DNA from: Macrostomum lignano
Taxonomy: Eukaryota
Length of the DNA: 64,000 nucleotides
Assembly (NCBI GenBank): GCA_002269645.1
Contig: NIVC01001449.1
Coordinates: 1 to 64,000, forward strand
Reading direction: 5' to 3'
Positions 11,067-60,363 of the stretch are shown here, piece by piece. The translations under genes were made by a program, and so were the position numbers. Numbering within the stretch: the stretch's first letter is position 1; each line of letters opens with the position of its first letter. The notes beneath the pieces are model-generated. The model was given only the letters and a program-made list of their open reading frames with translations, was not told where the DNA came from and ran no database searches.

Positions 11067-11115
11067 GTGGGTCTCGAGATCTTGACTGATGATTCCTACA
11101 GACTTTGCCGCTTCT

Positions 11116-12636: not shown

Positions 12637-12802
12637 AGAGACCGATTGAATAGACCCCTGACAGCCTGTGCAGAACCCTCTGACAAATCTAAAACCTGGC
12701 GCTCCCTACTGGCCATGGAACCCATTTGTGCGGCAAGGGGCTTAGTCCCCAATTGCATTAATATGCGTTACAATATCCTCATCCGCAATGCCCGTCTTCC
12801 AG

Positions 12803-13354: not shown

Positions 13355-13390
13355 TCGCCCCGAACTCTAATGGACATTTGTCTGTATCAC

Positions 13391-15143: not shown

Positions 15144-15424
15144 CGGACATGTTCTATCTAAGGACTTCAGAAGACTCTCGCCCGAGGTCATGAAGACGGA
15201 GTTTTATTCATCGCACTCGTACATTCCAGCTTGGGTACTCGAATCTGTGACTTTCCCGAAATGATGAAGTATCTGCCCAGCCCCTGTGAGTGTGGCGGGG
15301 AGCCGCATCCTGAGCAGCGGTGCTCTGCTCCAACCCCGGCCCAGCGAATAGCTATCGAGCTCGGCTCCCTCACGTGTTTCTCCTGTCACAGGTACAGTGA
15401 CGGCAGGTTATAAATTTAATCAAG

Positions 15425-25240: not shown

Positions 25241-25249
25241 ATCCCTTCC

Positions 25250-27172: not shown

Positions 27173-27863
27173 GCATGCAATCCTGCTTGCGACGCCAAAA
27201 TGTTGGAAATGACAAGCTAAGGCGAGCAATTGCTATGAGACGAGAAAACGATAGCTCTGAGCCAATGCTCCGTGTGAAACTATTTATTATCAACGATAAA
27301 GCACGAACCCGCGACAACCCCCCAACCCAGGACTAAAACTCACCGCACTGCACATCAGAGCACGATGACAATAATAATTTGATACGTACACTCAGACTGA
27401 ACAAAAGTACAAGCACCAGTGAAATAAGCAATCAAATAATAAACAGTGCGAAGCCCCGCCCAAGCCTAACAGTAGGTTTAATTAGCGGGAGTGAGGTAGG
27501 TTTGTCAGGAGTGAATTAGGTTAAGCGGGAGTGCAGTAAGTTTAGTGGTAATGACATAGGTTTGGCAGGAGTGAAGTATAAGATAGGATATGAGAGCTAA
27601 TGAAATCGTAAGAGTGAATTGTAGACTTGGCGAGAGTGAATTAGGGACCCGATGAAACCGGTGCCTAGGCCAAGAAGCGCCCCAGAGTCGCTGGAAGTAA
27701 CGGAGGTAAGAAGGAAAGAAGAAGGCGAATCTAAACATACGACGGTACGGTACGGTATGTCACGGTACACGTCGTCAAAGAATCGCCCAAGAGAGTCAAG
27801 CGAGTCTGGGGCCGTAGATTTATATCCGAGGCGTGCTAGAGTAACTGAATGACAGTTCTCTAG

Positions 27864-34753: not shown

Positions 34754-35308
34754 CCTACAATCGAGTTCACCAATCCTAAAAAGTTCCCCAATCCTACAAT
34801 TGAGTTCACCAATCCTACAATTGAGTTCACCAATCCTACAATCAAGTTCACCAATCCTACAATAAGGTCACCAATCCTACAATAAGGTCACCAATCCTAC
34901 AATCGAGTTCACCAATCCTACAATCGAGTTCACCAATCCTACAATCGAGTTCACCAATCCTACAATTGAGTTCACCAAATCTACAATCGAGTTCACCAAT
35001 CCTACAATAAGGTCACCAATCCTACAATAAGGTCACCAATCCTACAATCGAGTTCACCAATCCTACAATCGAGTTCACCAATCCTACAATCGAGTTCACC
35101 AATCCTACAATCGAGTTCACCAATCCTACAATTGAGTTCACCAATCCTACAATTGAGTTCACTAATCCTACAATCGAGTTCACCAATCCTACAATCGAGT
35201 TCACCAATCCTACAATCGAGTTCACCAATCCTACAATAAGGTCAACAATCCAACAAAAGAATCCAACAAATCTACAACCGAGTTTACCTATCTCTAATCG
35301 AGTTCACT
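34754..35308. repeat. 21-bp minisatellite (CAATCCTACAATCGAGTTCAC) immediately 3' of the PBK stop codon
   Basis: About 25 copies; explains the VNSIVGL-repeat ORFs. Confidence 0.95.
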
Positions 35309-35315
35309 ATTAGAG

Positions 35316-38770: not shown

Positions 38771-41700
38771 TCAAGCAAAGCCCGCCATGTACAAGTCAGG
38801 TGGCCGCCGCTCTCTCGCCGACCGCCGCGGAACCGTGACCGGCTCGGCCGGTGCCGCCGGCTGCTCCTCGGGTGCCTCGTCTGCCTGCAGCTCGGGCCAG
38901 AAGGTCACCGTGTCGCCGTCAGGATCGGCCGCCTGCCCGGGCGGCTCAGCGGCGGTGCCGTCGTTGTCGGAGTCCGCGGCCGGCGGCTGGTGGTCTGCCG
39001 CGGCCGGAAGCTCCAGTGACGCCCGTCGCTGCACGAAGCGCTTGAGGCGGTCGTGGTGCACCACCAGCCGGCGCCTGCGGCCGGTCTCGTCCTGGATGCG
39101 GTAATTGACCTCGCCCAGGCGCCTCAGGACTCGGTACGGCCCCTTCCACTTGGCGCTCAGGCACCGCGTCTGGCCGCGCTTGACGACGGAGTTGCGCAGC
39201 ATCACGAGCTGGCCCTCTTCGAACGGCACGAACCGAGAGTCCTGGTTGGCCAGCCGGTTGCGCTCGACCTGGGCGCTCCGCAGTCGGCCGTGCACCGTGT
39301 CGAAAGCGCTCTGCAGGTTCTCCTGAGTCCGCTGCAGGAAGCCGTGATGTCCACCGTCGGCTGCCGGCCGGTCGCCGCTTATCAGCCAGCTGTCGAGATC
39401 CAGCCTCGGTGGCCAGCCGTGGAGGACTTGGTACGGACTGAGGCCGGTGGTGCTGTGCACGGAGGTGTTGTAGGCCCAGGTCACATACGGCAGCTTGCTG
39501 TCCCAATCCTGCTGGTTCTCGGCCACCGTCGTCGCCAGCATATCGCCGAGCGTCCGGTTGCCTCGCTCGACGATTCCGTTGCCACTCGGATGAAACGGCG
39601 ACGTGCGCGTCTTTTCAACGCCCAGCTGCTCGCAGAGCCGGCCGAACACCTCGCTCTCGAATTGCCGTCCCTGGTCACTGTGCAGCACCTGAGGAGCGCC
39701 GTGACGCAGAACCACCGACTTGAGCAGTGCATCCGCCACCGTCACCGCGTCGATCGCCGCCAGGGCTGCCGTCTCCATCCACTTGGAAAAGGCGTCGCAC
39801 ATGCTCAGGATGTACGCCTTGCCATCAGTCGTACGCGGAAGCGGCCCTTTGATGTCGATCTGCACCAGCTGCCACGGAGCCGTCGGCTGGCACGTCGACT
39901 GTAGCGGCGCCTTCTGCGGCTTGGTTGGACACTTCTTGGCCAGGCAGACCGCGCAGCTGGCCACCCAGTTCTCGACGTCCCGTCGCAGACCAGGCCACCA
40001 GCAGCGCTCAGACAATCTCGCTCCGGTCCTGTCGACGCCGAGGTGTCCGCTCTGATCGCACGAGTGCGCCTGCTGCAGGAAATGTGGCCGCAGGTGACCG
40101 GGAATGACTGGCCGGCCACCCACCAGCAGGACACCCGCCGAGCTCACCGAGGCCTCGTCCAGCAGCTCGCGAACCTGCGCCGCCCACGAATCGGACAGGC
40201 TGTCAATCCCTTCGGTCAGTGCCTGGAACGCCTTGCTCAGCAGCGGGTCTTGCAGTTGCTCCTCGTGCAGGCGGCTGTCGTCCCACCGAGGCTGCAGGCG
40301 CGTGCCGGCCACCCGGCTCAGCGCATCCGGCACGACGTTGTCCCTGCCAGGCCGGTACAGCAGCTCGAAGGAAAACTGCTGCAGCGTAGAAAGCCATCGC
40401 GCCAGCCGACCTTCGGGTCCTTCGTTGTCAGCAGACCTTGCAGTGGCCGGTGGTCCGAGTAGACTCTGAAGCTCGGGACACTCAGCAGGTACGTCCTGAA
40501 GTGCTTCAGACTCCAGACCAGCGCCAGCAGCTCGCGGTCGGTCGCCGAGTAGTTGCGCTCGGCCTTGTTGAGGGTGCGAGAGGCGAACGCCACAGGCAGC
40601 TCGGCGTCACCGTGCAGCTGGCTGAGCACCGCGCCGACGGCGAACTGACTGCTGTCGCAGCTGAGCACGAACTGCTTGGTAAAATCCGGCAGCCTCAGCA
40701 CCGGAGCCGTCGTCAGCAGGTCCTTCAACTCGCGGAACGCTCGCTCGCAGTCGCTGCTCCACGCGAAGTCCGTCGATTTCACGCTGACGTCGTGCAGGAC
40801 CCTCGCCGTCTGGCTGAAGCCTGGGATGAACCGACGGTAGAACCCCAGCATTCCAAGAAACCGCTTCACCTCCTCGGTCGTCGTTGGGCTGGGCATGCTG
40901 CGAATGGCATCGACCTTGCCGGGATCCGGGGCAATGCCCTGCTCGCTGATCAGGTGTCCCAGGTACAGCACCCGGCGATGGCCGAACGCGCTCTTGGCCT
41001 TGTGCAGCTTGAGTCCCGCGTCTCGCAACCGCTTAAAAACTTCCGCCAGCCTCTCTAAGTGCTCGTCGAACGTCCTGCTGAAGACAATGATGTCGTCGAT
41101 ATAAGTCAGCACGGACTCCCAGGACAGGCCGGACATCACCAGCTCCATGAGCCGCTGGAACGTCGCCGGGGCATTGCACATCCCGAAGCCCATCTTGCAG
41201 AATTGCATCAGGCCGCGCGAAAGCCGTCTTGTACCGGTCCTCCTCCGCCACCTCCACCTGGTGGTAGCCCTGCCGGCAGTCGATGGTGGAGAACCAGGAG
41301 CATCCGACAAGCGCATCCATGGCCTGCTGCAGGTGCGGCAGCGGGTACGCATCCTTGACCGTGCAGGCGTTGAGCTGCCGCCAGTCCGTGCACAGTCTGA
41401 TGTCGCCGTTCTTCTTGCGGACCACCAGCAGGTTGCTGGCCCATGGTGATGTCGACGGCTCGATGATGCCGCTTTCCAGCATCTGGCCGATCTTCTTGTC
41501 CACCTGGTCTCGCACAGACAGCGGCAGCCGGCGCTGGACCTGCCGGTGTGGCCGCGCTCCCGGCTCCAGGTCAATCTGGTGCTGCAGCAACGCCGTCGTG
41601 CCCAGGTCGTACTCGTGCCTGGCGAACAGGTCCTCGTTGCTCTCCAGTAGCTGTCGCAGCCTCGCAGCATCCGGTTCGGGCAGCTCCGCGTTTATGTTCC

Positions 41701-42478
41701 AACCGACAGGGTTCTCCTGGGCCGCCTCCTGGCGACCGTCCCCGTCTGTCATCGCGCCTTCGAACGTGCCGACCGCCTTGTTGGCGTACAGCAGCACGGG
41801 CTCCTCTGCCAGGTTGCACATTTTCACCGGGATGCGGCAGTCGTCCGAGACCGCCAGCACGCGGGCCGGCAGGACGGCAGTGGACTTCACGAAGTCCTCA
41901 GACGGCTCAAAGACTCCCTGCTCGCCGCTGGAATCCACCTTGAGCCACACCAGCTTCTCGCTGCGGGCGGGCAACTCCGTAGTTGCCGCCACCCGCGCCA
42001 CCAGGACACTCGGCACCAGGCGACAGTCTGCTCTAGCCGGCTCGCTGCTGAAAGGCACAGCTGTGCTGTCGAACCTGACGACGCCTTCTTTAATGTCAAT
42101 GGTCATCGCCTGCGACACCTCGCCGATGAAGTCCATGCCAATGATCAGGCTGGGCTGGATGCCGTCCACGACTGTGAAGCGATGGCACACGCGGATGGTC
42201 TGGCCGATCGAAACATCCGCTGCTGACAGGCCAAGGCAGCGCAGCCGGGATCCGTCGACGGCCGTCGGCAGCGCACCGATGTCGGTGGAGTCGATCTTGC
42301 ACTGCAGTCTGTCGAACAGCGACTTGTCCATCAACGAAACTTGCGCGCCGGTGTCAAGCAGAGCAGGCGCTGACACGCTGCCAAAGTGCACCTTCACGAA
42401 GACTGAAGGCGCTGATCTGAGGGCCCCTTTTGAGCGGGTCGGTGCTGGCCCCAGGCTGCCGACCCTCAGAAGTTTCCC
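38771..42478 (-). pseudogene. pol: Element C Pol (PR-RT-RH-IN), in the -1 frame relative to gag; two further frameshifts near 41215 and 40415
   Basis: LLDTGAQ; YIDD; CDSSQFAVGAVL; integrase HHCC, IDIKGP, SDQGRQF, GNGIVER, and GPY (KWKGPY). Confidence 0.9.
42420..42478 (-). promoter_or_regulatory. -1 programmed ribosomal frameshift signal (G GGA AAC + 6-nt spacer + stem-loop / pseudoknot)
   Basis: Heptamer at 42478-42472; stem GGGTCGG (42465-42459) pairs with CCGACCC (42442-42436); loop GGGGCC can pair with downstream GGCCCT (42425-42420). Confidence 0.8.
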
Positions 42479-43260
42479 TGCGGCTGACCAGTTGGTGTCG
42501 GGCACACCGCGGCGGAGTGACCCTTGCCTGAGCACCGGCTGCAGCGGCTGCCGATCGCCTTTGGGCACCGCCTAGCGATGTGACCCGGCTCGCCACAGCT
42601 GAAGCACTTACTGGGTCCCTTCTGACGCCTGTCTCTTCCGGGTTGTCCCGTTCGCACGCTGGCTGTCAGCTGCTGCATCTGCTGCTCCAGCTGGCTCAGC
42701 CGTCTGTCTTCTACCGACACCGCGGCTGATGAGGCTGTAGTTGCGTGGCTCACCAGCTCAAGCTGCGCAGCTCTGTCGACGATGGCGGCCAGCGAACACG
42801 AGTCCGCGTCCTGGTCCTTCAACAGCGCATCTCTCACGGCAGATGGCAGGAGGCGCATCAGGCGAAACTTCACGTCCTTTTCCCGAGCCGCCACGGAGTC
42901 GTCCGGGCGGGCCCGAAGGTGGAGAAGCTTCAGGCTGTAGGCGAGCTCCCTCAGCGACTCGTTGGGCTGTCGCTTTCGCTCTACAAAATCCTCCATTGCT
43001 CTGTAGCAGCTCAGACTGTTGCCGAAGCACTCGATCAGCTTCTCCTTCAGCCTTTCATAGCTGGCTGACACGTCTGCCGGCTGCTCCCAGACGAAGATTT
43101 GCGCTTCTCCTGTCACCAGCAGTCTCAGCTTCTTTGCCTTCTTCTTGTCGTCCCATTCACAGTCGTCGGCGAAGTCTTCAAACGTGCTTAGCCACATTCT
43201 CACGTTGGAGTCGCCGCTGAACTTTGGAGGCAATAAACTGGCTTGCTCTGATTTGGCCAT
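42466..43260 (-). CDS. gag: Element C Gag, 264 aa
   Basis: ATG at 43260; PPKFSGD...WLSTFE capsid motif; knuckles CFSCGEPGHIARRC and CSRCSGKGHSAAVC. Confidence 0.9.
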   Translation of the reverse strand: MAKSEQASLLPPKFSGDSNVRMWLSTFEDFADDCEWDDKKKAKKLRLLVTGEAQIFVWEQPADVSASYERLKEKLIECFGNSLSCYRAMEDFVERKRQPNESLRELAYSLKLLHLRARPDDSVAAREKDVKFRLMRLLPSAVRDALLKDQDADSCSLAAIVDRAAQLELVSHATTASSAAVSVEDRRLSQLEQQMQQLTASVRTGQPGRDRRQKGPSKCFSCGEPGHIARRCPKAIGSRCSRCSGKGHSAAVCPTPTGQPQGNF

Positions 43261-45543
43261 ACTGAGACCGCTGCCACCAGTGTAAGACCGTGGGTTGAAT
43301 TGCAGTGAAGAACACAACACGTGAGGAGACCTCACTGGCTCACGCCAATATATTTAATACCAAAGTTGGGGTGAGTGTAACCACCCCAAGCACGCACACG
43401 CTGCAGCTCTAAACGCCATCCCCCAAAACAGCCAGACGTGCACATCTAAGTGCACGCGCACCAACAAGCCAGCCTACATAAGTAAGAGTTAAAAGTGTTA
43501 ATTTTTGTATTAGGATATTCCTAGTTATCCTAGACTATTGGTAGTAATTATTATAAGTAATAGAAAAGAGACAGACCTAAATAACATATCCATATTAGAA
43601 TAAGTTTCAAAAACCCATAGACATATAACACTAATGCATAAAGAAGCTCAAATGCATGATATACAAAAACTAAATTATAAAAAAGTGCAATGAAATGCAA
43701 CACTTATAATAAGATAGTATACTATACTTAAGATAGTATACATTATTGTATAAGATAATACCCATTGAATTTATACATGACATTACAAAACATTTAAAAC
43801 ATGATAGATAACCATCTGCATTTTTGTTTCAATTTCTTGACAAGTCAAAACATAAGCATATAACTTAGAAATCAATAACTAAAATATATTTGTCACATTT
43901 TACAATTTCAATAAAAACTAAATGTAGCATTGTTAGTGGATTTCTTTTTATTTAAGTCTGCTTAGCATGCATGCTAAATGTAGCCTTATATACCATAGTC
44001 TAGAAGGTTTGAAAAAGATTTGAAAAATTATGGCATATTTTTGCCCTTGCTAACAATCCTGGTAGGTGCTAATAAACTTATAACTTTTTGTCAGCTAGCC
44101 TAGCTATATAATAAATTCATAAACTGGTAAACTCCTTAGCACAGTACAGTATATGCAGCTTTTTTAGTCCATAGATAAAATAAATAGATTATTTAGTCCA
44201 TAGATAATTCTTAATTATACCTGTTTAAGCTTTTGGCATAGTGTACAAAAGCATTGAAGTATATGACATCATTGCATAAATTACGCTGAACAATCTGCTT
44301 TTAATTTTGAGTTAATTTGCAGTCATGAAAATATTTTTGATTTTCAAACAATATACTAAAACTTTTTAGTATACTTAATCAATAATAAATGTAACTATTT
44401 TGTTTTACTAATTCTTTTCATTTTTTTCAAATAATATAGGTTTTCAAATTTATTTTTTTCTTATGGTATGGTGTAAATTATTTGCTACACCTAGGATTCA
44501 TTATTGCATTGTTTTTGTGCTTGTTAATCACAGTTTTAATTGTCATACAATTTACTAGAATGCTTAATTGGTATACTTTATTGGCATACACTTTACTAGA
44601 TAGTCTGATACTTTCCAGCATATATATAACACAATCCACAATATGGCCATCTTGTGTGTTATAAAATCTACATTTTATAATACATTTACATATATGATTT
44701 GCCACCTACTGATTGGAATGATTGTGCATTTGTGCTCTTTTTTTTCAAACCAAATGAAGGCCTGCAATTTTCTCTAATAGGATACAAATATGATAAAAAT
44801 ATAAGATATAATAAAACTATAAAACAATGATACAAAGAATCTTCTATGGCAACAACTAGGGGTCACGAGATGCAAGTTGTATGATCCCAATATTAATCAA
44901 TTTCAATTTCAATCAGTTTTAATAAATTTAATTTAATTACAAATATTTATCAAACACTTGTTTATATACATACAAATTGAGAATGCACACAAATTTGGCA
45001 ACAGAAATTTAACATGGACAAATTTGGCAAAAATCTAAGCAAATTTGGCAACATATTTTTGTAACTAAAGACAATTAAGTTAAAGTAAACTACATATAAT
45101 GAGGACTTTTTTAAAATGCTTATAAAAGTTTATAAATGTAAAATAATGGCCGCATAAGCATGTTAAAATAACCCAAAAGTGTGTTGTTAAATTGGACTAC
45201 CTATATATTTGAGAATATGGTATGTGGTATATAGGAGGCCGTTTGACACTTCTCAAAGGTTTTTGCTTATTATGAGGCCGCCCAACCTTAAATCAACATT
45301 GCTTAGAAAGGACTTTCAATACTCACAAGGATAAATAATAGATAAAACAAACTCAATTAAATGGGAAAGCTAATATACCCTGTTATATTGAAGAATACCA
45401 TTATACTAAAGGAATTATCCAAATTTATAAATTATATACAATTTTTTTCATTTATTAATTGTTGCCAAATTTGCTTTTGCCAAATTGGTCTATGACTATT
45501 GTAAATCTCTATCGCCAAATTTGTTTGTTGCTAAATTGGTTAG

Positions 45544-48500
45544 TGTCGTGTAGCTACCAGTATGTGCATGCACTTAGTACGAGTATTGATTTGTATTTGT
45601 ACTTTCCTATTATTTCTTTCTCTATTATTATCTATGCAAGCTTGGCACGTTAGGTTTGAGTTATTGCTATTTGAGTTATGGGCAAATTGTGTACGCTTAA
45701 ATTATGTCATCACTCTCGCGCACGTAGCATCGCTTTACAATATAAATACAGACATCAGAGCTTTAATAGCTCTCTCATAGTCTTCAACCACTTGAAACAA
45801 GCAGCATAGCTGATTTACCACAATGGCGACGAGTTCAAATGGACGGATTCCGGAGCTCACACAAGACTCCGACTTCGAGATTTACGCGGAGAGAATGGAG
45901 CAGTATTTCATCTGCAACAAGGTCGAGTCCACCGAGGCCAAGCGCGCTACATTTCTCACTGCCATTGGAGAGAAACACTACAAACTGCTTCGGGACCTGT
46001 GCCATCCGGACAAGCTGACCACTAAGACATTCGAGCAACTCAGAGACGTCCTTAAGAACCACTGCTCACCTGCTCCTTCCGAGATTGCTGCCAGATTCAA
46101 GTTTCAGCGCAGGATGCAGCAAGAAGGCAAATTGTTCACAGTCTTCCTGGCAGGTCTCAAGTCTGCGGTGGTGCACTGCAATTTCGGCTCAACACTGAAT
46201 GAGCGACTTCGTGATCAGCTGGTATTCGGCATGAGTAGCGATGCAATGCGCTCCAAGTTGTTGGAGAGTGCAAACAACTCCTACGAGGCGCTGACCACCC
46301 TGGCTATTTCCTTGAAGACTTCGCAGAGATCTTCAAGCGAAATGTCGCTACCGTCGTCTACACACCGAGTCACGGCTCAACCAGCTGCAACCGCACGCCC
46401 CAGCAGCAGGCAAGCCAACTCGTTGAGACCATCTGCTGGCGCGGCATCGCCCAAGACTAACCGTTGCGACAGCTGCGGAGGCTCTCATTCGCGACAGACC
46501 TGCAGGCATTGCAGCGCCAAGTGCCACGGCTGCGGCAGGCTCGGTCATCTCAAGAAGGTCTGCCATTCATCCAATGCTTCCATCAAGTTGGTAGACGAGT
46601 CTGACTCCGCCACAGAGGACAAACAGGAGGAGGAACCCATCTTCCACGTATCGAGCGCCTCCCGGTCGGCCATCATGGTGCCTCTGCAGGTGAAAAAGAT
46701 GCTGACGCAATTTGAGCTGGACACCGGATCAGCTGTCAGCTTGGCACCAAAGTCCTTCTACGACAAGCATCTCAGCCACCTACCGCTGCGCCCATCGTGG
46801 ACCAAGCGGCGTACCTACACTGACCAGGAGTTTTGCCCGCTCGGCGAGGTGACTGTCAGTATCAACTATGAGGGACAGTCCTATGCGCTGCCACTGCTCA
46901 TCGTGTCCGAAGGCAGCGCTCGGCTTCTTGGCCGCAACTGGCTGACAGCCATCCAACTGGACTGGCCCCGCTTGACTGCTCCAGTCAACGCCATAGCGAA
47001 GAACCCCAACGACATCGCTGCAGAAATAATTCAGCAGTTTCCAGACGTCTTCGCGGACAACCTGGGCAAGTACCGACTAGGGGAGGTGAAGTTGCACGTC
47101 CAGGACAGCGCCACGCCCCGTTTCTACAAGGCCCGGCCAGTACCTTACGCCCTGCGTGACAGCGTAGACAAGGAACTGCAGCGAATGGAGGCAGAGGGCG
47201 TCATCACTCCAATCACCACCTCCGACTGGGCGGCGCCGATTGTTCCGGTCATTAAGAAGGATGGCTTGGTGCGCATATGCGGAGACTACAAATGCACCTT
47301 CAACCGCGTGGCCAAGCAGGAGCACTATCCATTGCCGAGGATTGAGGACCTGTTCGCACGGCTGGGCGGCGGCTACAAGTGGAGCAAGCTCGACTTGGCC
47401 AAGGCGTTTATGCAGCTGCCGATCTCCGAGGATAGCAAGCAGTTCCTCATCGTCAACACCCAGCGAGGACTGTTTCAAGTCAACTGCTTGCCCTTCGGCA
47501 TCTGCTCGGCCAGCGCCATCTTCCAGCGCGTGCTCGACACCCTGGTGGGGCACCTCGACGGTGTTCAAGTCTACCAGGATGACATCTTGGTGACAGGCTC
47601 TACATTGGCTGCGCACAAGGCCAACCTGATGCAAGTGCTGCACAAGCTGCAAGAGGCTGGTCTGCACATCAATGTGACCAAGTGCGCCTTCTTCAGAGAT
47701 TCGATCAACTACCTGGGTCACCGGATCGACTGTCACAGTTTGCGGCCACTCGCTGACAAGATCGAGGCCGTGCAGCGTGCGCCGGCGCCGACTGATGTGA
47801 GTCAGGTGCGCTCCTACCTGGGCATGCTGACTCACTATGCAAAGTTCCTGCCCAACTTGGCGTCGGTTGTAGCACCTCTCAACCACCTGCTTACCAAGGG
47901 CGCAACTTGGAAGTGGGGCGATCCCGAGGACCAGGCCTTCCGTGCTTCAAAGCAGCTGTTGCTGGACTCTGGTGCCCTGATGCACTTCAACCCAGACTTG
48001 CCTCTTCGGCTGGAGTGCGACGCGTCAGCATACGGCATTGGCGTCATGCTCAGCCACCGCGTGAACGGCCAAGACCAAGCGATCGCGTTCGCTAGCAAGT
48101 CTCTGACCTCAGCCCAGCGCAATTACTCCCAGCTAGACAAGGAGGCGCTGGCAATCATCTACGACGTGCAGCGCTTTCACCAATTTCTTTACGGTCGCCA
48201 CTTCACCATCGTGACGGATCATCGGCCGCTCCTCGGACTGCTGGGCCCGGACAAGGAAATCCCGACGCGCGCTGCTGCCAGAATGCAGAGGTGGGCCATC
48301 CGACTATTGGGCTACCAGTACTCCATGGAGTTCCGGCCGACCGAGAAGCACGGAAACTGCGATTCCCTCTCCCGCCTGCCGCTCAAGGGCAACTTCGTCA
48401 AAGAAGCCGCGGTGCACTTGCTCACTCTAGAGGACGATTCGAGCGTCGCAGTGACTGCTGCTGCCATTGCCAAGGCAACTCAAGCCGACACGGCACTGTC

Positions 48501-50143
48501 AAAGCTGCTGTGGGCCCTGCGGTCGGGACAGGAGCTGCCAGCTAACGACTTCCCTGACTTCGCCCATCATCAAGCAGAGCTTTCAGTCGAAGCCGGTTGT
48601 GTGCTGATGGGATCTCGCGTCGTTATCCCGGACACCCTGCGCAAGTCGGTGCTGCGGGAGCTGCATCTGGCACATCCCGGTGCGAGCCGAATGAAGGCCC
48701 TCGCACAGAGCTTCGTCTGGTGGCCTGGGCTAGACAAGGAACTAGAGCAGCTCGGGAGAAAGTGCGACACCTGCAGAGCTCATCAGGCAGACCCAGCAAA
48801 GGCTCCAGTGCATCCCTGGCTGTTCCCCAACGAACCATGGAGCCGCCTACATGTCGACTTCGCCGGCCCAGTCAACGGTCGAATGTACATAGTCATTGTC
48901 GACGCCTACAGCAAATGGCCGAAGTTCGCCTCATCAGCGACACATCTGCTGGCGGGACCATCGGGCATCTCCGTGACGTATTCTGCAACTTGGGCCTGCC
49001 AAGGATTCTCGTCTCCGACAACAGCCCCCAGTTCGCCTCTCGTGAGTTCGCTGACTTCATGCATAGCAACGGGATCCGGCATGTGACTTCAGCGCCCTAC
49101 CACCCGGCCACCAACGGACAGGCCGAAAGATTCGTGCAGACGCTGAAATCCCACATCAGGAAGTCGGGTCACTCTGCGGAAGCCATGCAGCACTTCCTGT
49201 TTGCCTACCGGATCACGCCGCATTCGAGCACCGGTGCCTCACCAAGCAAACTGCTATTCGGACGTCGCCTGCGATCCCGGCTGGACCTCCTGCGACCGTC
49301 CCTGGCTGAACAGATGCGACACCGTCAGAGTGCGAGCACTGACTCGACGCCCCGCCAAGCCCGGTCCTTCGAAGTTGGTGACACCGTGCGAGTGAAGACC
49401 TTTGGCAAGGATGCCGGCTGGCGGCCCGGCCTCATCATGGCGGCGGGCAAGCGCAACTACGATGTCAAGGTCGGCGAGGGCATCGTCGTCCAGCGCCACA
49501 TCGACCAACTCCTGCCAGAGCAGCGTCAGCAGCCTCCAGCAGTACCGGCTGTCGCGGCACCCGACCGAGTATCACCATCAATCTCCAAAACGACACCGCC
49601 GTCTGAGGTGGGCCCAGACAGCTCAACTTCGGAGACTTCGGCAGCGGCCCCGACAGCTGCTCTCGCTGGACCTGCTCCTGCTCCGATCACAGAAGTCGCC
49701 GGACAGCAGGCTGGAGCAATGCACCGATATCCAGAACGCATACGGCTCGCGCCTGCCAGGTTTCAGGCGGGCAGTGATTGAACCTTGTGACACTGACTTG
49801 ACTCACAAACTAATCTTGAATCACAATGCTTTTTTTCGAGTTTTAACTCCCTATGGGGAGGAAGTGTCGTGTAGCTACCAGTATGTGCATGCACTTAGTA
49901 CGAGTATTGATTTGTATTTGTACTTTCCTATTATTTCTTTCTCTATTATTATCTACGCAAGCTTGGCACGTTAGGTTTGAGTTATTGCTATTTGAGTTAT
50001 GGGCAAATTGTGTACGCTTAAATTATGTCATCACTCTCGCGCACGTAGCATCGCTTTACAATATAAATACAGACATCAGAGCTTTAATAGCTCTCTCATA
50101 GTCTTCAACCACTTGAAACAAGCAGCATAGCTGATTTACCACA
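45544..50143 (+). mobile_element. Ty3/gypsy LTR retrotransposon D (Mag-like), 4600 bp, near intact
   Basis: 279-bp LTRs at 45544-45822 and 49865-50143 (1 difference seen); 5-bp TSD GTTAG; PBS TGGCGACGAG (45824-45833, tRNA-Ser); PPT GGGGAGGAAG. Confidence 0.96.
45823..49781 (+). CDS. gag-pol: Element D single gag-pol polyprotein, with one frameshift in integrase near 48920
   Basis: 1087-aa ORF with knuckles, LDTGSA, YQDD, CDASAYGIG and integrase HHCC; continues in another frame (KWP/EVRLIS...SDNSPQF...TNGQAER). Confidence 0.9.
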
Positions 50144-51953
50144 GTTAGCACTATAAATTGAAACTTTACTGATTTTGCTTTTGAGTGCATCTCTTATTGC
50201 TATATTCATTATACTATAGCAATAGTATAGCATTACACTATACTTCATTATACTATATATTAGAAACTGTAATAAATTGGTCAACACAGTTGACAAATAA
50301 AAGTTGCTTCTTTGGCAACACTATTTTCCATTTTCCAAAATTGATACATGCAAAGAATTGTTTAAATGCCTTATTACAAGCTTCAAAACTCAGAAAGTGG
50401 GAAATTTTATTTTAAAAATGAAGTTTTTTCACATGTCAAATGTATTTTATTAAGAGTGATACATGCCAACTATGCACACCCAATTTGGCATGCAACCATA
50501 GTCTGTTTCGTTAGAGTTACGCCAGAAATCTCTGGCATAATTCTAGACAAAAATTCTAGTCTTGGTATAAATGCTTGGCGTAAGAATTAATAGAAAAATG
50601 GACTGGCATGAAGGATAGGTATAAAAACAACTACAGGCTCATTCCATATAAGCATGGTCGTAACATGACAGGTTATTTTTACTTATAAAATGAAATCTAA
50701 TAATAGAATATACTAAACCAATATTTTAAATTGTTATAGGCGTGATTCTCCCTTCTTAATAATATCCCACCGCTATGTCACCAAGTTGTTATAGGCCCTT
50801 TGGCTCTCTATAAGGATCCCACCGCTATGTCACCAAGTTGTTATAGGCCCTTTGGCTCTCTATAAGGATCCCACCGCTATGTCACCAAGTTGTTATAGGC
50901 CCTTTGGCTCTCTATAAGGATTCCACCGCTATGTCACCAAGTTGTGGTAGTTGTTTCACCTCCTACTTTATCAATTTTAATCTCACCGCTGATACCAAGT
51001 TGTGGTAGGGCTTCAAATTCCCTGCTATCGAATTTATACTGCTGATACTAAATTCTGCCTTTAGTATTTCTAACTGTTTCTTAGAATCTCATCTATCTTC
51101 TGGGTAGCGTTCTTAGTATATTCTGGTAGCGTTCTTATGTATTAGTCTGGTAGCATCCTAGTATATGGTCTGGTAGCGTTCTTAGTATATGGCCTGAGCG
51201 GTCTTACTGGTATATGTACTTTCTCTCTCCAGTCTGGGCGTTACCGAGATTAGAGGGTCACAGCGATTACTCTTAGTACTCTCTCTGCATGAATTCCCAA
51301 TTCTGACTTTCAATACCTTTTAAAATGAGCAAAGATCTGAGAATGTTTATCGAACACGTTTTGAGCTTATAGCTAACGAACGAGTTAATTTTCCTACCTC
51401 CAACTTCGCTCCTATTTATACCATCTCGACTGTGTATATTTATAACAAACGTAGAATATTAAGAATATTTTGCAAATTAAAACAAAACATAGTTTTCGCA
51501 TGATTTTAGAAATAAGGTTTCCTAGAAAATAGTAACCGCTTCTACAACTTTCCTCCTCTTATCATGAATTTTGAATGAAAGCAATGCTACAGTGAAAAAT
51601 TTATGAGTACATTTAGCATAAAAATTGGAAGCTAAAAATAAAACATATTTAGTACAAATGCTATTAAAGAAACATGAAACATAGTACGAATGCTAGACCA
51701 GATAGTCAATATAGGTGCTCTGGGTGCTAAAGAACGAAATGCAGTGCATAGGTGAGCAACACACAATACAAATAGACTGTTAATTGTTCACAAAGTAGGC
51801 ATATCAAAGAAAATGGCATAGTAATTTGTAAAGACAATAAACATAGTAAAATTTAAAGACAATAAGCATAGTAAAGTTTAAGGACAATAAGCATAGTAAA
51901 GTTTAAAGAAACTAAGCATAGCAGAAATGTTAAAATGTCAAATTGTCAAAAGT

Positions 51954-52793
51954 TCAAAAGTCGCAATACCGGGGCAGGTCTCGATAAAATGGCCATCCGA
52001 GCTGCGAGAAGCACCATCGCAGCTCGATATTGACCAGCTGCCGCTGCGCCGGCCGGGCATCCGCTTGCAGTGTGCGCTGGAGACGTTCGGCGATCTCCTG
52101 CAGCACAGCCACAGCCTCGCGATGGCTAAAGTGCTCACGCAGAGTGCGCAGGTGAGGCCAGATCTGCGACCGCTGCGGCAGAGCCTCGTCTAGACGCAGA
52201 AAGGCGATCCTCAGAAGGTACTGTTGGATGCTGTGCCGCGGGCGTTCGACCTCGGCGCCTCTGGTCTCGATGAGCTGGCGAACAATGGCGCGATGATCCT
52301 GCGAGTCTCCCTGCGGCGGCGGGCGCGCTGGTGGCGTACCTGGGCGAGATTGGCGAGCATTCGATTGCCTTGGGCCACGAGACGGCGCTTCAACTGGGAC
52401 GGCAAGCTGTATCGATCGGCCGCCAGCGCTATCCGCTTTCATGACACAAGAACGGATTGGCGCGGCCGCTTGTCGTTCTAGCAGGGCGGCCCGCTTCCTC
52501 TCTGGCTCGTTGGACTGATTCGAGGCAGCAGCAGATGATGAAGCGCTTGATCGCTTGGTGGCGGAATCCCCGCCTGGGGGCCTTGGGCGCGTGGGCTGCC
52601 TGAGGGGAGCCTCGTTCTCCTGCTGTTCTCGGGCTCGTCGTTCTCGGTCACGCTCTTGTTGCTCGCGCTCTCGCTCTTCGCGCTCTCGCTCTTCGCGCTC
52701 TCGCTCTTCGCGCTCTCGCTCTCGTTCTTCGCTTGGATTGCCATCTTCCAAAAGGTCTTGCAGGAATTTGTCAATATCGTCGTTGTTGTCCAT
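51954..52793 (-). CDS. Intact 279-aa accessory ORF of element E (acidic N-terminus, E/R coiled coil, P/S linker, helical C-terminal domain); unknown function
   Basis: ATG at 52793 (MDNNDDIDKFLQDLLEDG); GC-rich within AT-rich flanks; TATAAAT at 52894-52888, about 95 nt upstream; no signal peptide or TM segment seen. Confidence 0.7.
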   Translation of the reverse strand: MDNNDDIDKFLQDLLEDGNPSEEREREREEREREEREREEREREQQERDRERRAREQQENEAPLRQPTRPRPPGGDSATKRSSASSSAAASNQSNEPERKRAALLERQAAAPIRSCVMKADSAGGRSIQLAVPVEAPSRGPRQSNARQSRPGTPPARPPPQGDSQDHRAIVRQLIETRGAEVERPRHSIQQYLLRIAFLRLDEALPQRSQIWPHLRTLREHFSHREAVAVLQEIAERLQRTLQADARPAQRQLVNIELRWCFSQLGWPFYRDLPRYCDF

Positions 52794-53202
52794 CTTCGAA
52801 TTACTCTGCACAGCTCTTAGTATTAATCTTCGAATCGCTCTTCGGATATGTGAAATATGGGGGCCTGCTAGCGGTCAGGGGTTTCGCATTTATAGGCTGG
52901 CGGCCGAAAAACTGGACCGCATCATTGTGTTCCACGCGGGCCTTGAGTGGGGGGTGCTTGGGTTGGCAGATTTGACACTCAGATTTTATGGATTTTCTTT
53001 AGATTTTTTATAACTTTTTATTTTTCGAGATTTTTTCTTGAGTAATATGTCATATGAAAGCTTACATTTAGCAGAATACTATGGTGTTTTCAGATTTGTT
53101 CTATGTACAACATGTCAATTTTTATAGGCAAAAAACTATTACTAATATGAGATTTTAACTAATTTACACTGGTTTCAATGGCAATTCGCTGACGTCATCA
53201 CC

Positions 53203-53679
53203 CTATTGTTCCAAATATCGTGCGTAGCGCCTTCGGGGCACGAATCCGTTCACACCTTCTCCTTGCTGAGTCACTCTATTGCCTCGTGGTCTCAGATTAT
53301 ACCTCCCTTCTGGCTGAGCTTCCTCCTCTAACTCTATTGCTCCTTCCTCTTCTGATGGCTCATCTGAGTCAGTCGCTCTCTCTGTATTCTCACTATTCAG
53401 TTCTTCATTTCCTTCGTTTTCACTCTGCGAATTATGATCTGCGAACACTCTCCATTGAATTCTGTCTTCTTCGTCTGAGCTTTCCTCCTCTAAAATTTGA
53501 ACTTCTGGATTTTTATTAACTTCTTTTCGTCTATGGCAAATTCTTTTCTTTCGCTTTGGCTGTTCCTTCTTCTTAGTTTGTACTATTGCTGGTTCTAAAT
53601 TATTATTAATTTCTTCGGATAAATTAATTTCGGATTTCGGCACTGGAGTCAGATTATTTCTATGCTTCTCTTCGAACAA
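53203..53679 (-). pseudogene. Acidic low-complexity ORF ending in RYNLRPR; probable integrase C-terminal tail left after pol deletion
   Basis: RYNLRPR-type tails are common at gypsy Pol C-termini (compare YEFRPR in element A); no ATG start. Confidence 0.45.
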
Positions 53680-54489
53680 CTTTGCAAATTCTCACAGCTT
53701 CTCCTCGAAATCTCATCTTCATTCCATCTCATCTCAACTCAACAACTTCTCGACTCAATATCTCGACTCGACCCTGACCTCTCGAAAGCTTCTCTGCTGA
53801 ACTCATGCCAGCTACAGCTCTACTGTCACGGGTCCTACAACTCTCAAATCTCCTTTCACTGTTTCAGCTTGGCCTCGTCAGTAGAATCATAGAGATTCTG
53901 TATTAATCTGCACTTTAGGCCTTACTGCCCTTCCTTTCCTGCATGGCCTGACTCTCTGAACCTTTCTTGGCTCTTCTGAAAGCGTCATCGGCCTCTTCTT
54001 TCTGCCTTTGGCTAATCTGCAATAGGTCAGTATACAACTGTCCGTGCATCATGCCAATCTCTGCAATCCAATCTCTTCGACAATTCTCTTCGCACAATTT
54101 GCACAATCTTCTCAGTATCATCTTCTCGGCAACTTCTCTGAGTAGAATAATCTTCCTTCAATGTTTTCAGTCCGAAATTGCAGTTCCCTGGCTTTCCTAT
54201 TAATTTTCTTAGTAAAACGGTCCTTTTAAGGTCAAACGGCCCTTTTAAGGTCATCTAGTTAAAACGGTCCTTTTGAGGGTTACCTCCTAAATTTTTAGCT
54301 ATTTAACGAATTTTATTTACTTTAGACGGCTTACTTGGTCGGTACATTGTAATATGCAGACGAAATACTTCTTTAAAAAAATTTTTAGGATTTTTCTAAC
54401 TTATATTCGTTTTTATATTTTGCATATACATTTCTATACATATTTACAAATAGTTTTTCAGAATCGCGCTTCTATGTACGAGTCTTCTT

Positions 54490-55062
54490 AGGGTGGCTTC
54501 TGCTGGGCGTGCCGGTTGAACCTGATTCGGCACTGGTGTCCTGCCTGTGGCCTCATAGGTCCTGGTTGGTCACAGAAGAAACAGTGACCAGGTTTTGGCT
54601 CCGGTCTGGTTCCACTGAATCGGTGTCTCTTCCAATTCGGCATTGGTCAGGTGTCTGCGGTACCGGCTTAGTCTCTAGGCTAATGTTGGTGAAAATTACA
54701 GTTAGAGTGACTAGGCACTCCATCAGCGCTTCCATGCCTCTCTTCTGTCTTTGCTCCTCACTCTCTCCGTACTCTTCAATAATCCTTTGGCGGATGTACT
54801 GATACTTGAAGTCTTCTTTCCTGTTGCTCAATCTGCGCTTGACTCTCTCTGGGATGTTCAGATTCGCGAATAACTCTTTCTTGCACTCTTCCTCACTGAG
54901 CTTCTTATTCCTACAATGCTGCTCGAAGGTGATCAACCACTTGCGAATATCTTCGCCAGGGGCGTACTTCTCGAATCTTTCTTCTCTTGTCACTTTTCCT
55001 AGACAGTCTCACAGTTGTTCTGCCAGCATGGCAATGGCATCATTAGCCTGATTCTGATTCAT
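54490..55062 (-). pseudogene. gag: Element E gag remnant
   Basis: MNQNQANDAIAMLAEQL*DCLGKVTREERFEKYAPGEDIRKWLITFEQHC (capsid-like); a frameshifted degenerate knuckle, CFFCDQPG(P), follows. Confidence 0.6.
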
Positions 55063-55181
55063 CTTCTCTTTTCAAATTATTCTTCGAAATTCTTCTGTTC
55101 TGAGAATCTTTCTGAGTATTACTACCTGTTCTAACCTTGAGAGTTCTCGCCGTTTCTCTAATCCCACTGCTGCCACCAAGT

Positions 55182-55500
55182 TGTTATAGGCGTGATTCTC
55201 CCTTCTTAATAATATCCCACCGCTATGTCACCAAGTTGTTATAGGCCCTTTGGCTCTCTATAAGGATCCCACCGCTATGTCACCAAGTTGTTATAGGCCC
55301 TTTGGCTCTCTATAAGGATCCCACCGCTATGTCACCAAGTTGTTATAGGCCCTTTGGCTCTCTATAAGGATTCCACCGCTATGTCACCAAGTTGTGGTAG
55401 TTGTTTCACCTCCTACTTTATCAATTTTAATCTCACCGCTGATACCAAGTTGTGGTAGGGCTTCAAATTCCCTGCTATCGAATTTATACTGCTGATACTA
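55182..55500 (-). repeat. Array of six LTR-end/PBS-like modules in U5 of element E (same array at 50732-51050)
   Basis: PBS-like cores at 55214-55233, 55266-55285, 55318-55337, 55370-55389, 55430-55447 and 55486-55500. In element sense, all but the last are preceded by an LTR-end mimic and ACT. Confidence 0.9.
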
Positions 55501-57068
55501 AATTCTGCCTTTAGTATTTCTAACTGTTTCTTAGAATCTCATCTATCTTCTGGGTAGCGTTCTTAGTATATTCTGGTAGCGTTCTTATGTATTAGTCTGG
55601 TAGCATCCTAGTATATGGTCTGGTAGCGTTCTTAGTATATGGCCTGAGCGGTCTTACTGGTATATGTACTTTCTCTCTCCAGTCTGGGCGTTACCGAGAT
55701 TAGAGGGTCACAGCGATTACTCTTAGTACTCTCTCTGCATGAATTCCCAATTCTGACTTTCAATACCTTTTAAAATGAGCAAAGATCTGAGAATGTTTAT
55801 CGAACACGTTTTGAGCTTATAGCTAACGAACGAGTTAATTTTCCTACCTCCAACTTCGCTCCTATTTATACCATCTCGACTGTGTATATTTATAACAAAC
55901 GTAGAATATTAAGAATATTTTGCAAATTAAAACAAAACATAGTTTTCGCATGATTTTAGAAATAAGGTTTCCTAGAAAATAGTAACCGCTTCTACAAAAT
56001 GAAAGATTATTTTGTCTAGAATATATTTATAGAGTTTCATATAGATATCATCATTAGTATAGATGCTATTAAACCTTAAATGACACTTATGGTCGTAACG
56101 ACAGGATTTTTGACATATAGAAACTAAAAGGTAAAAGTCGTATAACATTTTTCATTTTTGATATTTTGCAATACATTTTTAAAATTTGACTAAGAACATC
56201 TTTAGAAATCATACTCTTTTATTAGAATATATAAACTCAAAAGGCAACAAAGATACAAAAGAAAAGGCAGCCTTATGGTCATAACATTATGGTCGTAACA
56301 TATTTTTTTCTGTCAATTCAGTAACTTTGAGGTACTAATACATTAAAAATATAATAGATTATTTGGTCACCAATGCTTTTATCTGATGATGCAAGTACTA
56401 TACTTTTATCTATAGTTTGTTTCAACCTTCAAAAGCTTTCTATTTGTTTTTAAAAGGTACAAAATCTTAATGATGTCTTTTGCTTCGAAAAATGTCCAAA
56501 TTTTTACAAAAATGACTTTTTGCCAATTGATAACATACTAATCCAACATTTTACCATTCCTTTATTCTTAGATTGTATATATTGCATAATATAAACATTT
56601 GGTAAAAAAATAGGCTAATTAGACAATGGCAAGCAAAAATATTGACTTTTTTCTATTTTCCAAATATGTCCATCTTATATGGAATGAGCCTACAGATGAT
56701 TTTTTGGCGCATTTCCCTGACCATGTTTTAATTACTGTAACTTATTTCAAGTATTTGAATAAAACAGAGAATTTAAATAATAACACATTTTATAATTTGT
56801 AAAAAGTAAAACAAAGTTTAAAATCTAGAAATTAAGCTATAACGAAAAAACTTTTAGGTTGTTATCTTTTTGATACTTATATCTAAATATACTAAATCTC
56901 TAAGGTTTGTATGTCCATAACGCTCTAGAGAGAGCAATTCTTCACCGATTTATGTTTCTAAAGTTTTAATTTTAATATACAAAAAACATAAATAAACTTT
57001 TTTGAAATAAAAAAGTTTGTACAAACTGCCCCACGCCCCCCCCTTTTAGTCTAGGTATTATGCCTAGC

Positions 57069-60000
57069 CACACTGCTCTAGAAGGGCACCGAGGGTGAAA
57101 AAAATGTACAGAAGAAAATTTTTGCATTTTTGCACTCAGTGGACTGGCCCTTATACCTGGGTGTAATATAAAAAAATCTGCCAATTTGTTTCCAGAAAAT
57201 TGGCCTTTTCTGCTTTTTCTGCAACAGTCTGCTTTTAGTTGTCAAAAATCTGGAAATTACAAATGTTGTGCTCAATTTCTTGACTCTGGATACGTGATAA
57301 TATTTTCAAATGTAAATTCGTAAATTTAGGGAAATTGCGCAATATAAAAGTTGGCTTGAGGGTCACAAATGCTGAACATTATAATTTTGCATGCATTTGG
57401 CAATATATAGCTTGGAGCTGAGTCATAACCATAATTTGATCAATGTATACAATCAGTTTAAAGGAAAATTTGTTATTTGACTGATTGAGTACAATGACTG
57501 ATATAACAGAATACGCTTGTAGACAAATTAAAATCAATTGGACCCATAATCCACGTACAGATGTATATTTTCTACTTCTTTTTTCAACTCTTCCTACTGT
57601 TAGTGTATTTAATGCATCAGAATTTCAATTTGTTGAGAAGCCAAGTGAAGTGTACTCTAGGTGAGTCGCGTAAGTATTACACCTTTTCACGTTCAATTTT
57701 GAACAAAGTCCAGTTCTAAAAAAACTAGCGGAAATTCAATTCAGACAATTCAGACTGGGGCAACAAAACCCAGTTCAAAACATTCTGCTACGGAAGCGAG
57801 GTTTAGCCATAGACAAAATTGTCCCCAGTCCTTGATGTGAGTGCAAAATCTGTGTGATTGCACGCGAAAATTCTATTAGTCAAGGATTAGGAACAGCTAA
57901 GCATCGACTGCATCCTATCGGGCGCCCGCCGATTGATAGTTTGGACCCACTGCTGTCTGCCAATCTGGTCACCATTTGCGGACGCTGCCATTCTAAAATT
58001 AGCAGAGGAAAGAGCCACGCTTGCACTATTACACAAAGGCGTGCCAATCTGTCTGAGCAGCTCTTAATGGACAAGCATGGGGCTGAGATCCAGGCTTCAG
58101 ACATACTAAAGACAGTTGAAGCTTCTAGCGGACCCTTTGAAAGCAGGAATGTCTAGCTGGCAACTCGTGGAAGATCTTTAACAGTAAGTTTTGGGCAGCA
58201 GAAACATCAATCTTTGAATAGTAGGGAAGCGGATACCATTTCTGCAGAGCAGTTCAGCCAATTTCAGCAGGATCTAAGGCTAAGCCAGTGGCAAACTAAG
58301 CAGGCAGCGCAGAAGATACGCGAATGGCAAGGGCGCAATGCATTTGAGCCAAATCTTGAGCAAAAACTTTGAGAGATTGACATCATTCTTCAAGAGTTTT
58401 TCGAAGTTGCACAGCTTCCGCTGCAAATTAAGGGAGACCAACAAGAGCTGCGCACCATTGCGTACTGCCCAGATGTTGGTCTGCTGCTGTCTCGAATAAT
58501 GGAGAACCGCCAGATCAATCCCGCTGAGTCTGTAGTAAAGATCGGAATCGATGGAGGCGGAGGTTTTTTAAAAGTCTGCGCAAACATCAATGATGTTTCT
58601 CTTCCAGAAGCACAGGTAGAGAAACGTACAGCATCTTCTGAGCCACAAGCCAGCGGAGTTAAGAAGCTCATCTTGCTAGCCATAGTTGAAAATGTTTGTG
58701 AAAGCTATTACAACCTGAAGAAAGTTCTTGCACTTTTGCGACTTGAAGCTGTAACATTTATCTGTGCCGTAGACATGAAGTTGGCGAATTTGATCCTAGG
58801 GCTACAGGCCTGTAGCAGCACGCATCCTTGCCCATGGTGCGAGCAGCCCAAGTCAAAGTTTGTGCAGCAAAACTCGGGAGCAAACTTGCGCACACTTGGT
58901 CAGATTTGACAATTAGCAACAGAGTTCCAGCAGGCAAATGATCAAAAAAGCAGACGTCAAAGCATTTCTGCTGCATGCTTCAAAAACTGTGTTCACCAAC
59001 CTCTATTGGATGCAGATGACAGCGTTCCTGTTCTACAGCTGATCCCACCAATGGAGCTCCATCTAATGTTAGGAATCGTTAATAGGCTGTATGATGAGCT
59101 TGATTCACACTTGACGACAGACACTGGTGGCGTAGTGACTGCAGCAGCCTGGACAAGACAGCTGAACATCTGCCGTTCAAAGCAGCATGGTGGAACATTC
59201 AACGGTAATGAATGCAGCAAGCTACTTGAAGGAGTCGATATCCTTGAGCAGATCCTGACTGACTATTGTGCTTTCAGTTCAATGCCAGTTCTCCATTCTA
59301 TGTGCTGCTTCAGCAATGTAAAGCGACTGTGCTTTGGCAATGAGCTGCTGCCTGGATTTGAGCAAGCCAGTTCGGAATTTTCCAGCGCTTATATGAGCTT
59401 GGACATCAACATTAGTCCAAAGGTACATGTGCTACTAGCACATGTTCCAGAGTTTCTTCAGGCAGAAATTGAACACCAAAACCATCACATGGAGAATGGG
59501 AAGCAGCCTCGATATCGCGGCCTTGGCTTTTGGTCCGAGCAGGCGAGCGAGTCCGTCCATAGTGACTTTGGCCAGCTGTGGACAAGAGGCTTTCAGACAG
59601 CTTTAACACATCTAGAGTATCCACAATGGCTGCTGCGATGCACTATCATATACAACTTGAGACATATGTGATGAATTCTTGTGCCACCTTGGTAGCCACA
59701 TGCAATGAAAGCTTTTATATTCTTTCAATTCACCTATACTAACTTTACCTTCTAATTCTGTTAAATCAATCAATTCTGTTAAATCAATCTAATACTATTT
59801 CTTTAAAATGCTTTCTTTATTTTTTTGCATTCAGTTTAAGCAAAAGTATTAGCAAATTAATAATGATAATATACCTACTTTTTTGATTTATAGCTTTGTT
59901 TGAAATACATGTAAATGCAGAATTTTTGCAAAATGGCAGAGCCAACTTTTTGAAAGCAATAAGGCTAATATTTGCACATTTTCCTAATTTCTTGTGAATT

Positions 60001-60363
60001 ATAAGCATACATAATGAAAATATCATCAGGTATAGAATTTATTAAATTGTCTATGGCTGAAACATCCTGGCAGCTTATAGCAGTCATTAAAGAGGTCATT
60101 ACTGTGTAGTGACATTTTGATCAATGCCACATATCCAAAGAGTCAAGAAATTGAGCACAACATTTGTAATTTCCAAATTTTTGACAACTAAAAGCAGACT
60201 ATTGGCATTGCAGAAAAAGCAGAAAAGGCCAATTTTCTGGAAACAAATTGGCAGATTTTTTTATATTACACCCAGGTATAAGGGCCAGTCCACTGAGTGC
60301 AAAAATGCAAAAATTTTCTTCTGTACATTTTTTTCACCCTCGGTGCCCTTCTAGAGCAGTGTG
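57069..60363 (+). mobile_element. Chapaev-type (CMC; Transib/RAG1-related) DNA transposon, 3295 bp
   Basis: ~230-bp TIRs (57069-57296, 60128-60363) beginning CACACTG; 4-bp TSD TAGC (57065-57068, 60364-60367). Confidence 0.85.
57494..59671 (+). pseudogene. Chapaev-like DDE transposase, 726 codons in one frame with six premature stops
   Basis: CECKICVIAR; CGRC...GKSHAC; KIGIDGGGGFLK; DMKLANLILGLQACSSTHPCPWC; PPMELHLMLG; FNGNEC; PKVHVLLAHVPEF; GFWSEQASESVH. Stops at 57662, 57671, 57833, 58154, 58370 and 58907. Confidence 0.85.

Follow-up and report, generated by a model that had tools for sequence, protein, structure and literature searches.

Rows of LTR-end and primer-binding-site cassettes in a Ty3/gypsy clade of Macrostomum lignano, with signs of exchange between elements

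Long terminal repeats (LTRs) in a Ty3/gypsy clade of the flatworm Macrostomum lignano end in a variable row of cassettes at the putative U5, each of which would consist of an old primer-binding site (PBS), 25-60 nt of sequence and an integrase-type end. The norm for an LTR is a single end with a single PBS. A pool of cassettes, permuted cassette orders, extra cassettes confined to the leader, perfect tRNA-type joints and a live PBS with two alleles were all observed directly. The architecture is real, clade-wide and apparently undescribed, within a known element class, and seems to be built from known steps of reverse transcription. The account that these sequences favour, and that we hold with moderate confidence, is that U5-end cassettes are exchanged between co-packaged RNAs by template switching, parked in the leader and then absorbed into both LTRs.

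Results

A deleted gypsy element with a six-unit array

The window (the whole 64,000-nt stretch analysed, from contig NIVC01001449.1) contains a young, internally deleted, non-autonomous Ty3/gypsy copy of M. lignano. Its features are given below in the sense of the element; unit letters (y, D, H, A etc.) are labels coined in this analysis.

55997..56000, minus strand: 4-bp target-site duplication ATTT, present on both flanks (other copy 50728-50731)
55182..55996, minus strand: 5' LTR, 815 bp, TG...CA, 100% identity with the 3' LTR
55861..55870, minus strand: TATA-like box, called on sequence only
55451..55505, minus strand: unit y, an eroded first cassette, tied to the LTR subfamily of this element and in first position in 9/9 distinct arrays
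55393..55450, minus strand: cassette D, 58 nt, made up of linker, PBS variant, spacer and LTR-end motif
55237..55392, minus strand: cassette H, three tandem 52-nt copies
55182..55236, minus strand: terminal cassette, a recombinant with an A-type spacer, an H-type PBS variant and an H-type end
55161..55181, minus strand: 3-nt linker (55181-55179) and live PBS (55178-55161), 17/18 complementary to tRNA-Leu(AAG/TAG)
54553..55062, minus strand: gag, broken 5' remnant, by comparison with gag of L073
53203..53691, minus strand: pol, 3' tail, the remainder of pol being deleted
51954..52793, minus strand: third ORF, open, 279 aa, also in full-length relatives
51548..51560, minus strand: polypurine tract (PPT)
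50732..51546, minus strand: 3' LTR, in which 51055-50732 repeats the six-unit array letter for letter

The array makes up the last third of the 815-bp LTR in both copies, with no difference between them, and to judge from the TATA-like box it appears to lie well downstream of the likely start site. Typical of Ty3/gypsy elements are the direct TG...CA LTRs, the short target duplication, the tRNA PBS and the PPT. The window copy shares its leader, gag start, pol tail and third ORF with a relative, L073, in which gag and pol are open, gag has a zinc knuckle and the domain order is PR-RT-RNase H-IN; the RT region of L073 is 100% identical to a protein labelled M. lignano by its source. In an RT tree built without named clade references (Gmr1/Osvaldo, Mag, CsRN1, Mdg3/Micropia), one group (support 100/98) united 13 rows, all from elements that have an array or the same leader (84-100% identity).

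The third ORF (window 51954-52900, minus strand) is open in deleted and full-length copies, and matched no Pfam family and no Atlas entry. A TATA-like box precedes it by about 100 nt, and it could be an accessory gene with expression of its own. An Rfam search of the whole element gave 0 matches. The element is inserted in a high-copy repeat (flanks 50600-50731 and 56001-56300), and its LTR also contains a 22-24-nt tandem repeat (55553-55646 and 51103-51196) whose copy number is unequal between the two LTRs of another element, C652.

Internal copies pair with the tRNA-Leu end

The original prediction described the LTR as a reiteration of its own end and PBS, separated by four different spacers. 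Its reading of the array was accurate: PBS-like copies start at 55500, 55447, 55389, 55337, 55285 and 55233, the live PBS lies at 55178-55161 (all minus strand), and the four spacers are as first described. The proposed Leu-type primer also agrees with the host, whose tRNA-Leu(AAG/TAG) genes supply the complement (31 pattern matches against 0 for the control); all 12 of the 12 loci tested behind the pattern are tRNA-Leu. The live PBS has one mismatch to the tRNA, at position 11. From the live site outward, the duplex energies with the tRNA-Leu end are -32.9, -28.9, -28.3, -28.3, -23.4, -21.5 and -7.3 kcal/mol. The cores match the tRNA better than shuffled sequence does, with 0/500 own shuffles reaching the energy of the live site or of five internal copies, and 3.6% reaching that of the most distant internal copy.

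A clade-wide pool of cassettes

Genome-wide, the junction motif has 737 exact matches and its reversed control 0; the array analyses cover part of these matches, in a motif-based, non-random sample in which the parser missed some first units. De-duplication gave 165 arrays with 227 distinct units, which fall into 58 spacer clusters, 20 of them seen at least three times; the longest arrays have eight units. The 126 right-hand array ends represent 117 independent junctions with 75 distinct cassette orders, a count made without arrays of unplaceable end (e.g. L199, L215) and after P-Q-H-x58 had been dropped as a mis-parsed live PBS. The commonest order, D-G, is found at 35/117 junctions. The array is not fixed, and module number and spacer identity vary between family members, as had been anticipated. 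Fourteen of 55 type pairs, each in at least two distinct arrays, occur in both orders.

A genome search with the H and A spacers returned 69 and 31 matches, respectively. All 60 that were inspected, 30 for each spacer, stand behind a PBS-like copy in cassettes of the same clade, the H spacer on 4 and the A spacer on 12 LTR-body clusters, many of them only 70-80% like the LTR body of the window. Their confinement to clade cassettes on such diverged bodies indicates that the spacers derive from putative U5 ends of the clade itself and have passed from one subfamily to another. Chimeric cassettes that combine two types also occur, among them J' in C390 and the last unit of the window, which places crossovers in the end motif as well as in the PBS.

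These results modify the proposal that the LTR grew stepwise by capturing its old terminus and PBS. Capture itself is supported, by change that is mainly PBS-proximal and by perfect tRNA-type joints. A simple linear record of one lineage is not what the arrays contain: their spacers come from a shared pool exchanged between subfamilies, and orders are in places reversed.

Polarity and degeneracy

Cassette order is shuffled between lineages, and change within a lineage falls mostly at the PBS end. Among arrays on the same LTR body, true prefix nesting accounts for 12 relations (from 6 lineages), suffix nesting for 0 and internal indels for 3. The predicted polarity is seen within lineages only; between them, orders are permuted. 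Prefix nesting is suggestive only, because linkage to the LTR body favours prefixes under any model.

The expectation that degeneracy increases away from the live PBS has partial support. Window energies follow it, and the number of edits relative to the tRNA sequence climbs from 3.6 (last rank) to 5.7 (fifth rank), but most of the trend comes from a family-fixed first unit; without that unit the gradient has p ~0.04, in arrays that are not independent. That every internal PBS is altered does not hold family-wide, as 14/299 units are perfect tRNA-Leu copies. These are concentrated near the live site (13/185 units at the last two ranks versus 1/114 deeper, p 0.02), and several copies (w-N-M, C3711, and C20/C3533 of a sister family) retain perfect internal sites in both of their LTRs.

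The last two units of an array, where they differ in type, have a common end triplet in 14/69 arrays against 6.3 expected. Sharing is also raised between non-adjacent units (19/128 against 7.4 expected), so kinship contributes. Triplet sharing was scored at only 5/13 perfect joints, and some unit borders are mis-set.

The live PBS has two main alleles

Removal of 3 duplicates from 49 junction groups left 46 independent 5' junctions. These carry one imperfect allele in 25 cases, the perfect tRNA complement in 13, a second imperfect allele in 3 and others in 5, one of which is an intermediate. The perfect alleles turn up on scattered leader haplotypes. Such a mix is the pattern expected if the plus strand copies the tRNA and the resulting heteroduplex is resolved either way. 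This pattern, with live alleles converted to the tRNA sequence, shows that the true PBS is used for priming.

The same argument, of tRNA copied into the PBS and a heteroduplex, is made for mouse endogenous retroviruses (ERVs) in section 4.3 of PMC7472051. According to that section, the commonest live PBS of mouse ETn, MusD and IAP is imperfect and scattered perfect alleles are tRNA copies, as here; those elements have a single PBS, whereas the gypsy clade has many internal copies. Ty1 and Ty3 are said there to inherit the PBS strictly. In contrast, the flatworm clade shows a retrovirus-like, two-allele live PBS, and copying of tRNA into the PBS is thus seen in a gypsy element although the same text denies it for Ty3.

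Opposite damage in live and internal sites

In imperfect internal copies, positions 8, 13, 17 and 18 are intact in 96-99% compared to 40-68% at positions 5-6 and 9-11 (positions 1, 3, 4 and 7 are forced by the parser in these scores), and the 3' half is 86% kept versus 67% for positions 5-11. Positions 14-16 are variable like 5-6 and 9-11, while 8, 13, 17 and 18 are near-invariant across 37 cassette types, which neutral decay does not predict. The first 11 nt are kept in 0/102 imperfect internal copies and in most live alleles. [quoted passage not shown]

Damage of this kind would fit an array that, by whatever step it was built, is kept by selection as an anti-silencing or structural device, whether as a decoy for 3' tRNA fragments, as an escape from small RNAs or as extra contact sites for tRNA or Gag. 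We regard this reading as unlikely: an exact seed site for an 18-nt tRNA fragment is present in only 25/102 imperfect copies and one for a 22-nt fragment in none, more targets in cis should strengthen silencing, and the array of the most numerous subfamily is short (D-G, 35/117). A broader proposal is possible, if doubtful: a selected cassette-shuffling system, in which the priming junction would serve as a recombination site, the LTR end would be diversified every few generations and the row would form a dated log of co-packaging, with live sites tuned to prime yet dodge tRNA fragments and internal sites tuned oppositely. The clade offers an invertebrate setting in which to test the arms race between PBS and tRNA fragments.

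A co-evolved hairpin hiding each internal PBS was considered and is not supported. Native PBS-spacer pairs beat swapped pairs in just 56/108 units (10/14 types), and end triplets showed no covariation with PBS positions 5-7 (p 0.44 and 0.75). Cassette M, with its perfect PBS, folds into a strong hairpin; spacer hairpins are otherwise weak (mean z -0.7), and cassette ends are slightly complementary to the PBS (86/136 beat shuffles).

Cassettes confined to the leader

Forty of 44 leader-anchored LTR pairs agree over their full length (in one case but for 2 nt), and three have 5'-only extras. The remaining pair, C901, has a 3' LTR that breaks off inside a cassette and is counted in neither class; the pairs include a few haplotype duplicates or tandems. 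The extras are 53-102 nt long, amount to one or two cassettes and follow the 5' LTR, and all three elements have matching 4-bp target duplications at the shorter end. A fourth leader-only element, C391, was located by its perfect internal PBS and has an intact target duplication. In three of the four (C754, C390 and C391) the PBS at the LTR edge is a perfect tRNA copy, and the imperfect allele of the family stands at the downstream PBS. C428 (L260) has an imperfect allele of cassette type at its LTR edge and lacks the shared end triplet.

One set of elements forms a series. It starts with w-N alone, followed by the imperfect live allele (L259). In its middle member (C391, L428), w-N is followed by a perfect PBS, M and the imperfect allele, and the 3' LTR has no M. 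At its end, M is in both LTRs and the live PBS has been converted (L257, L258). PBS conversion is only towards the tRNA sequence, which favours the direction from leader to LTR.

Further elements add detail. L143 has the leader haplotype of L124/L132 without the K-A block, and a donor LTR for K-A is known (L222). C3171 is longer at the 3' LTR, having lost one cassette, in the 5' LTR only, between end motifs. C754 and C269 have five leader variants in common and are mosaics thereafter, and internal regions are mosaics. Agreement of the LTRs in 40/44 pairs and mosaic internal regions are both expected from exchange during replication.

A model of exchange during reverse transcription

The exchange step would be a template switch of reverse transcriptase at the repeated junction, between co-packaged element RNAs. 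First, the minus strand could pass the live PBS into the U5 cassettes of an unprimed partner RNA, or reach them by jumping at the CCT...ACA end motif. Second, in a mis-registered second strand transfer, plus-strand strong-stop DNA, ending in a copy of the tRNA, would pair with an internal instead of the live PBS. The product would be LTR-PBS-cassette(s)-PBS-leader, and its 3' LTR would be short. One round later, priming at the downstream PBS would place the cassettes in both LTRs, and priming at an intact internal PBS would shorten the LTR again. All products could integrate, because a valid end motif closes each cassette. With time, internal sites that are intact would disappear, so that surviving cassettes have a PBS broken within its first 11 nt. 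Cassette build-up would then work as a ratchet and could begin without conferring any benefit.

Some observations sit less easily with this model. Upstream priming on a longer parent could just as well have produced the leader-only forms, as losses. The imperfect LTR-edge allele of C428 and the longer 3' LTR of C3171 also speak against it. The window's last cassette looks like the product of a double crossover and fits a minus-strand switch better. Perfect internal sites in both LTRs of several copies mean that removal of intact sites is not fast.

The main rival places the gain in minus-strand strong-stop synthesis: DNA primed on a donor RNA would copy its last cassette, would then end in a tRNA-like sequence and could re-prime on a PBS of the partner RNA. 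Both LTRs would then lengthen at once, and leader-only forms would be losses by priming at internal sites. The array B-E-G has the form this predicts, being the known LTR B-E joined, inside the PBS, to the linker and terminal cassette that the commonest subfamily has. PBS variants also travel with the spacer downstream of them, tandem copies (H-H-H) follow directly, and the window's last cassette requires two switches. On the other hand, the route alone does not predict a perfect tRNA joint beside an unconverted downstream allele (C754, C390, C391). Moreover, the family's live allele is found in no internal unit, once one mis-parsed case is removed. As the source of gain by itself, such a switch is in our view rather unlikely. 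It is compatible with the model of leader insertion and absorption, and probably also acts.

Unequal crossing-over or gene conversion between integrated LTRs, as in a minisatellite, could give tandem identical units, the 5'-only cassette loss between end motifs in C3171 and the 3 internal indel relations. It is very improbable as the origin of the arrays: the homologies are just 10-20 nt, LTRs match in 40/44 pairs, haplotype duplicates agree in the array, and donor and recipient LTR bodies are up to ~25% apart, while perfect tRNA-type joints with intact target duplications need a replication step.

The assembly is redundant, with duplicate loci and homopolymer differences, but the idea that the array is an assembly artefact of a repetitive region has negligible probability, given two identical LTR copies, duplicate loci that agree, 737 motif matches versus 0, and contigs from independent runs that hold the 52-nt tandem junction unchanged (3/4 runs) and the empty-site join of 50731 to 56001 (4/4 runs), which exclude it for the tandem junction and the element ends.

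Relation to other elements and known systems

Sister groups at ~60% RT identity show simpler states. In one (L403, L405-L408; RT ~60%) a single relic PBS lies 110-210 nt inside the LTR, and the live PBS is imperfect, with a tRNA match over 10 nt. A second family (L410:3060-3262, L437-L443; RT ~59%) has near-identical cassettes of 85-89 nt with a perfect internal PBS, one cassette in both LTRs of C20 and C3533 and two at C616, where the 3' LTR was not found; it apparently represents the same process, either at an early stage or in a separate form. The exact double-junction pattern had 0 matches in metagenome contigs. A crude scan of 84 distant RT relatives (32-48% identity), in which most contigs lacked LTRs and 1/3 positive controls was missed, gave 8 unconvincing matches.

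The LTR end beside the PBS is normally among the most constrained parts of a retroelement. In the flatworm clade it is the most variable part, with intermediates frozen in the genome. Voronin and Pathak reportedly described, in 2004, retroviral vectors with two PBSs in which PBS choice sets the LTR end; those vectors are artificial and have two sites, whereas the clade has a natural pool of exchangeable cassettes. CRISPR and integron cassette arrays have a repeat-spacer layout, addition mostly at one end, a shared pool and changing order. The flatworm arrays resemble CRISPR in that change is polarised at one end, within lineages only. They differ from it in that their spacers are reused U5 ends of the elements themselves, not unique foreign spacers in fixed order, and they differ from both in that no dedicated enzyme and no foreign DNA are seen.

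Clade-wide reiteration of a priming signal beside the LTR is also reported in PMC2829016, for the multiple PPTs of Sireviruses. Those PPTs are plus-strand primers, near-identical, outside the LTR and without an attachment site; each flatworm copy, in contrast, lies inside the LTR and brings its own end motif. The bipartite PBS of Drosophila gypsy and yeast Ty3, as presented in PMC1635307, likewise gives more than one tRNA-binding site per genome, but there the second site is at the 3' end, pairs with another part of the tRNA, is fixed and forms no array.

M. lignano Ty3/gypsy elements as treated in the main text of PMC12801592 have in common with the window clade paired LTRs, a 4-bp duplication, a tRNA PBS, a PPT, a gag zinc knuckle and the order PR-RT-RH-IN; the main text and supplement 3 contain no mention of PBS, primer binding, tandem or tRNA. 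Full-text literature, with most subscription journals outside the search, yielded no description of a natural array of LTR-end and PBS cassettes. Annotation by family consensus and LTR boundary calls hides the cassette structure. Cassette rows provide a naturally occurring record of errors in strand transfer and of which subfamilies were packaged together, in a species for which transgenesis is available (PMC12801592).

Other features of the window and genome

Head-to-tail tandem elements with a common LTR occur at C241, C2404, C1833 and C1098 (L121-122, L147-148, L411, L409/L424). Inside the window, 57069-60363 contains 156-nt perfect inverted repeats around ORFs at 58373-59671 and looks like a DNA transposon; the ORF at 58910-59668 had no Pfam match. 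A 500-aa frame at 15401-16903 (plus strand) has weak matches to 7-transmembrane receptors, below curated cut-offs. Further gypsy-type pol pieces lie on both strands at 18993-27232, 38771-43353 and 45814-49974. Four to five tandem 2.3-2.9-kb units, CT-rich and with 30-nt repeats and short GGTTAG arrays, occupy 367-10232, and minisatellites with periods of 31/47, 28/31, 21, 22 and 43 are present at 11057-15167 and 34754-37471.
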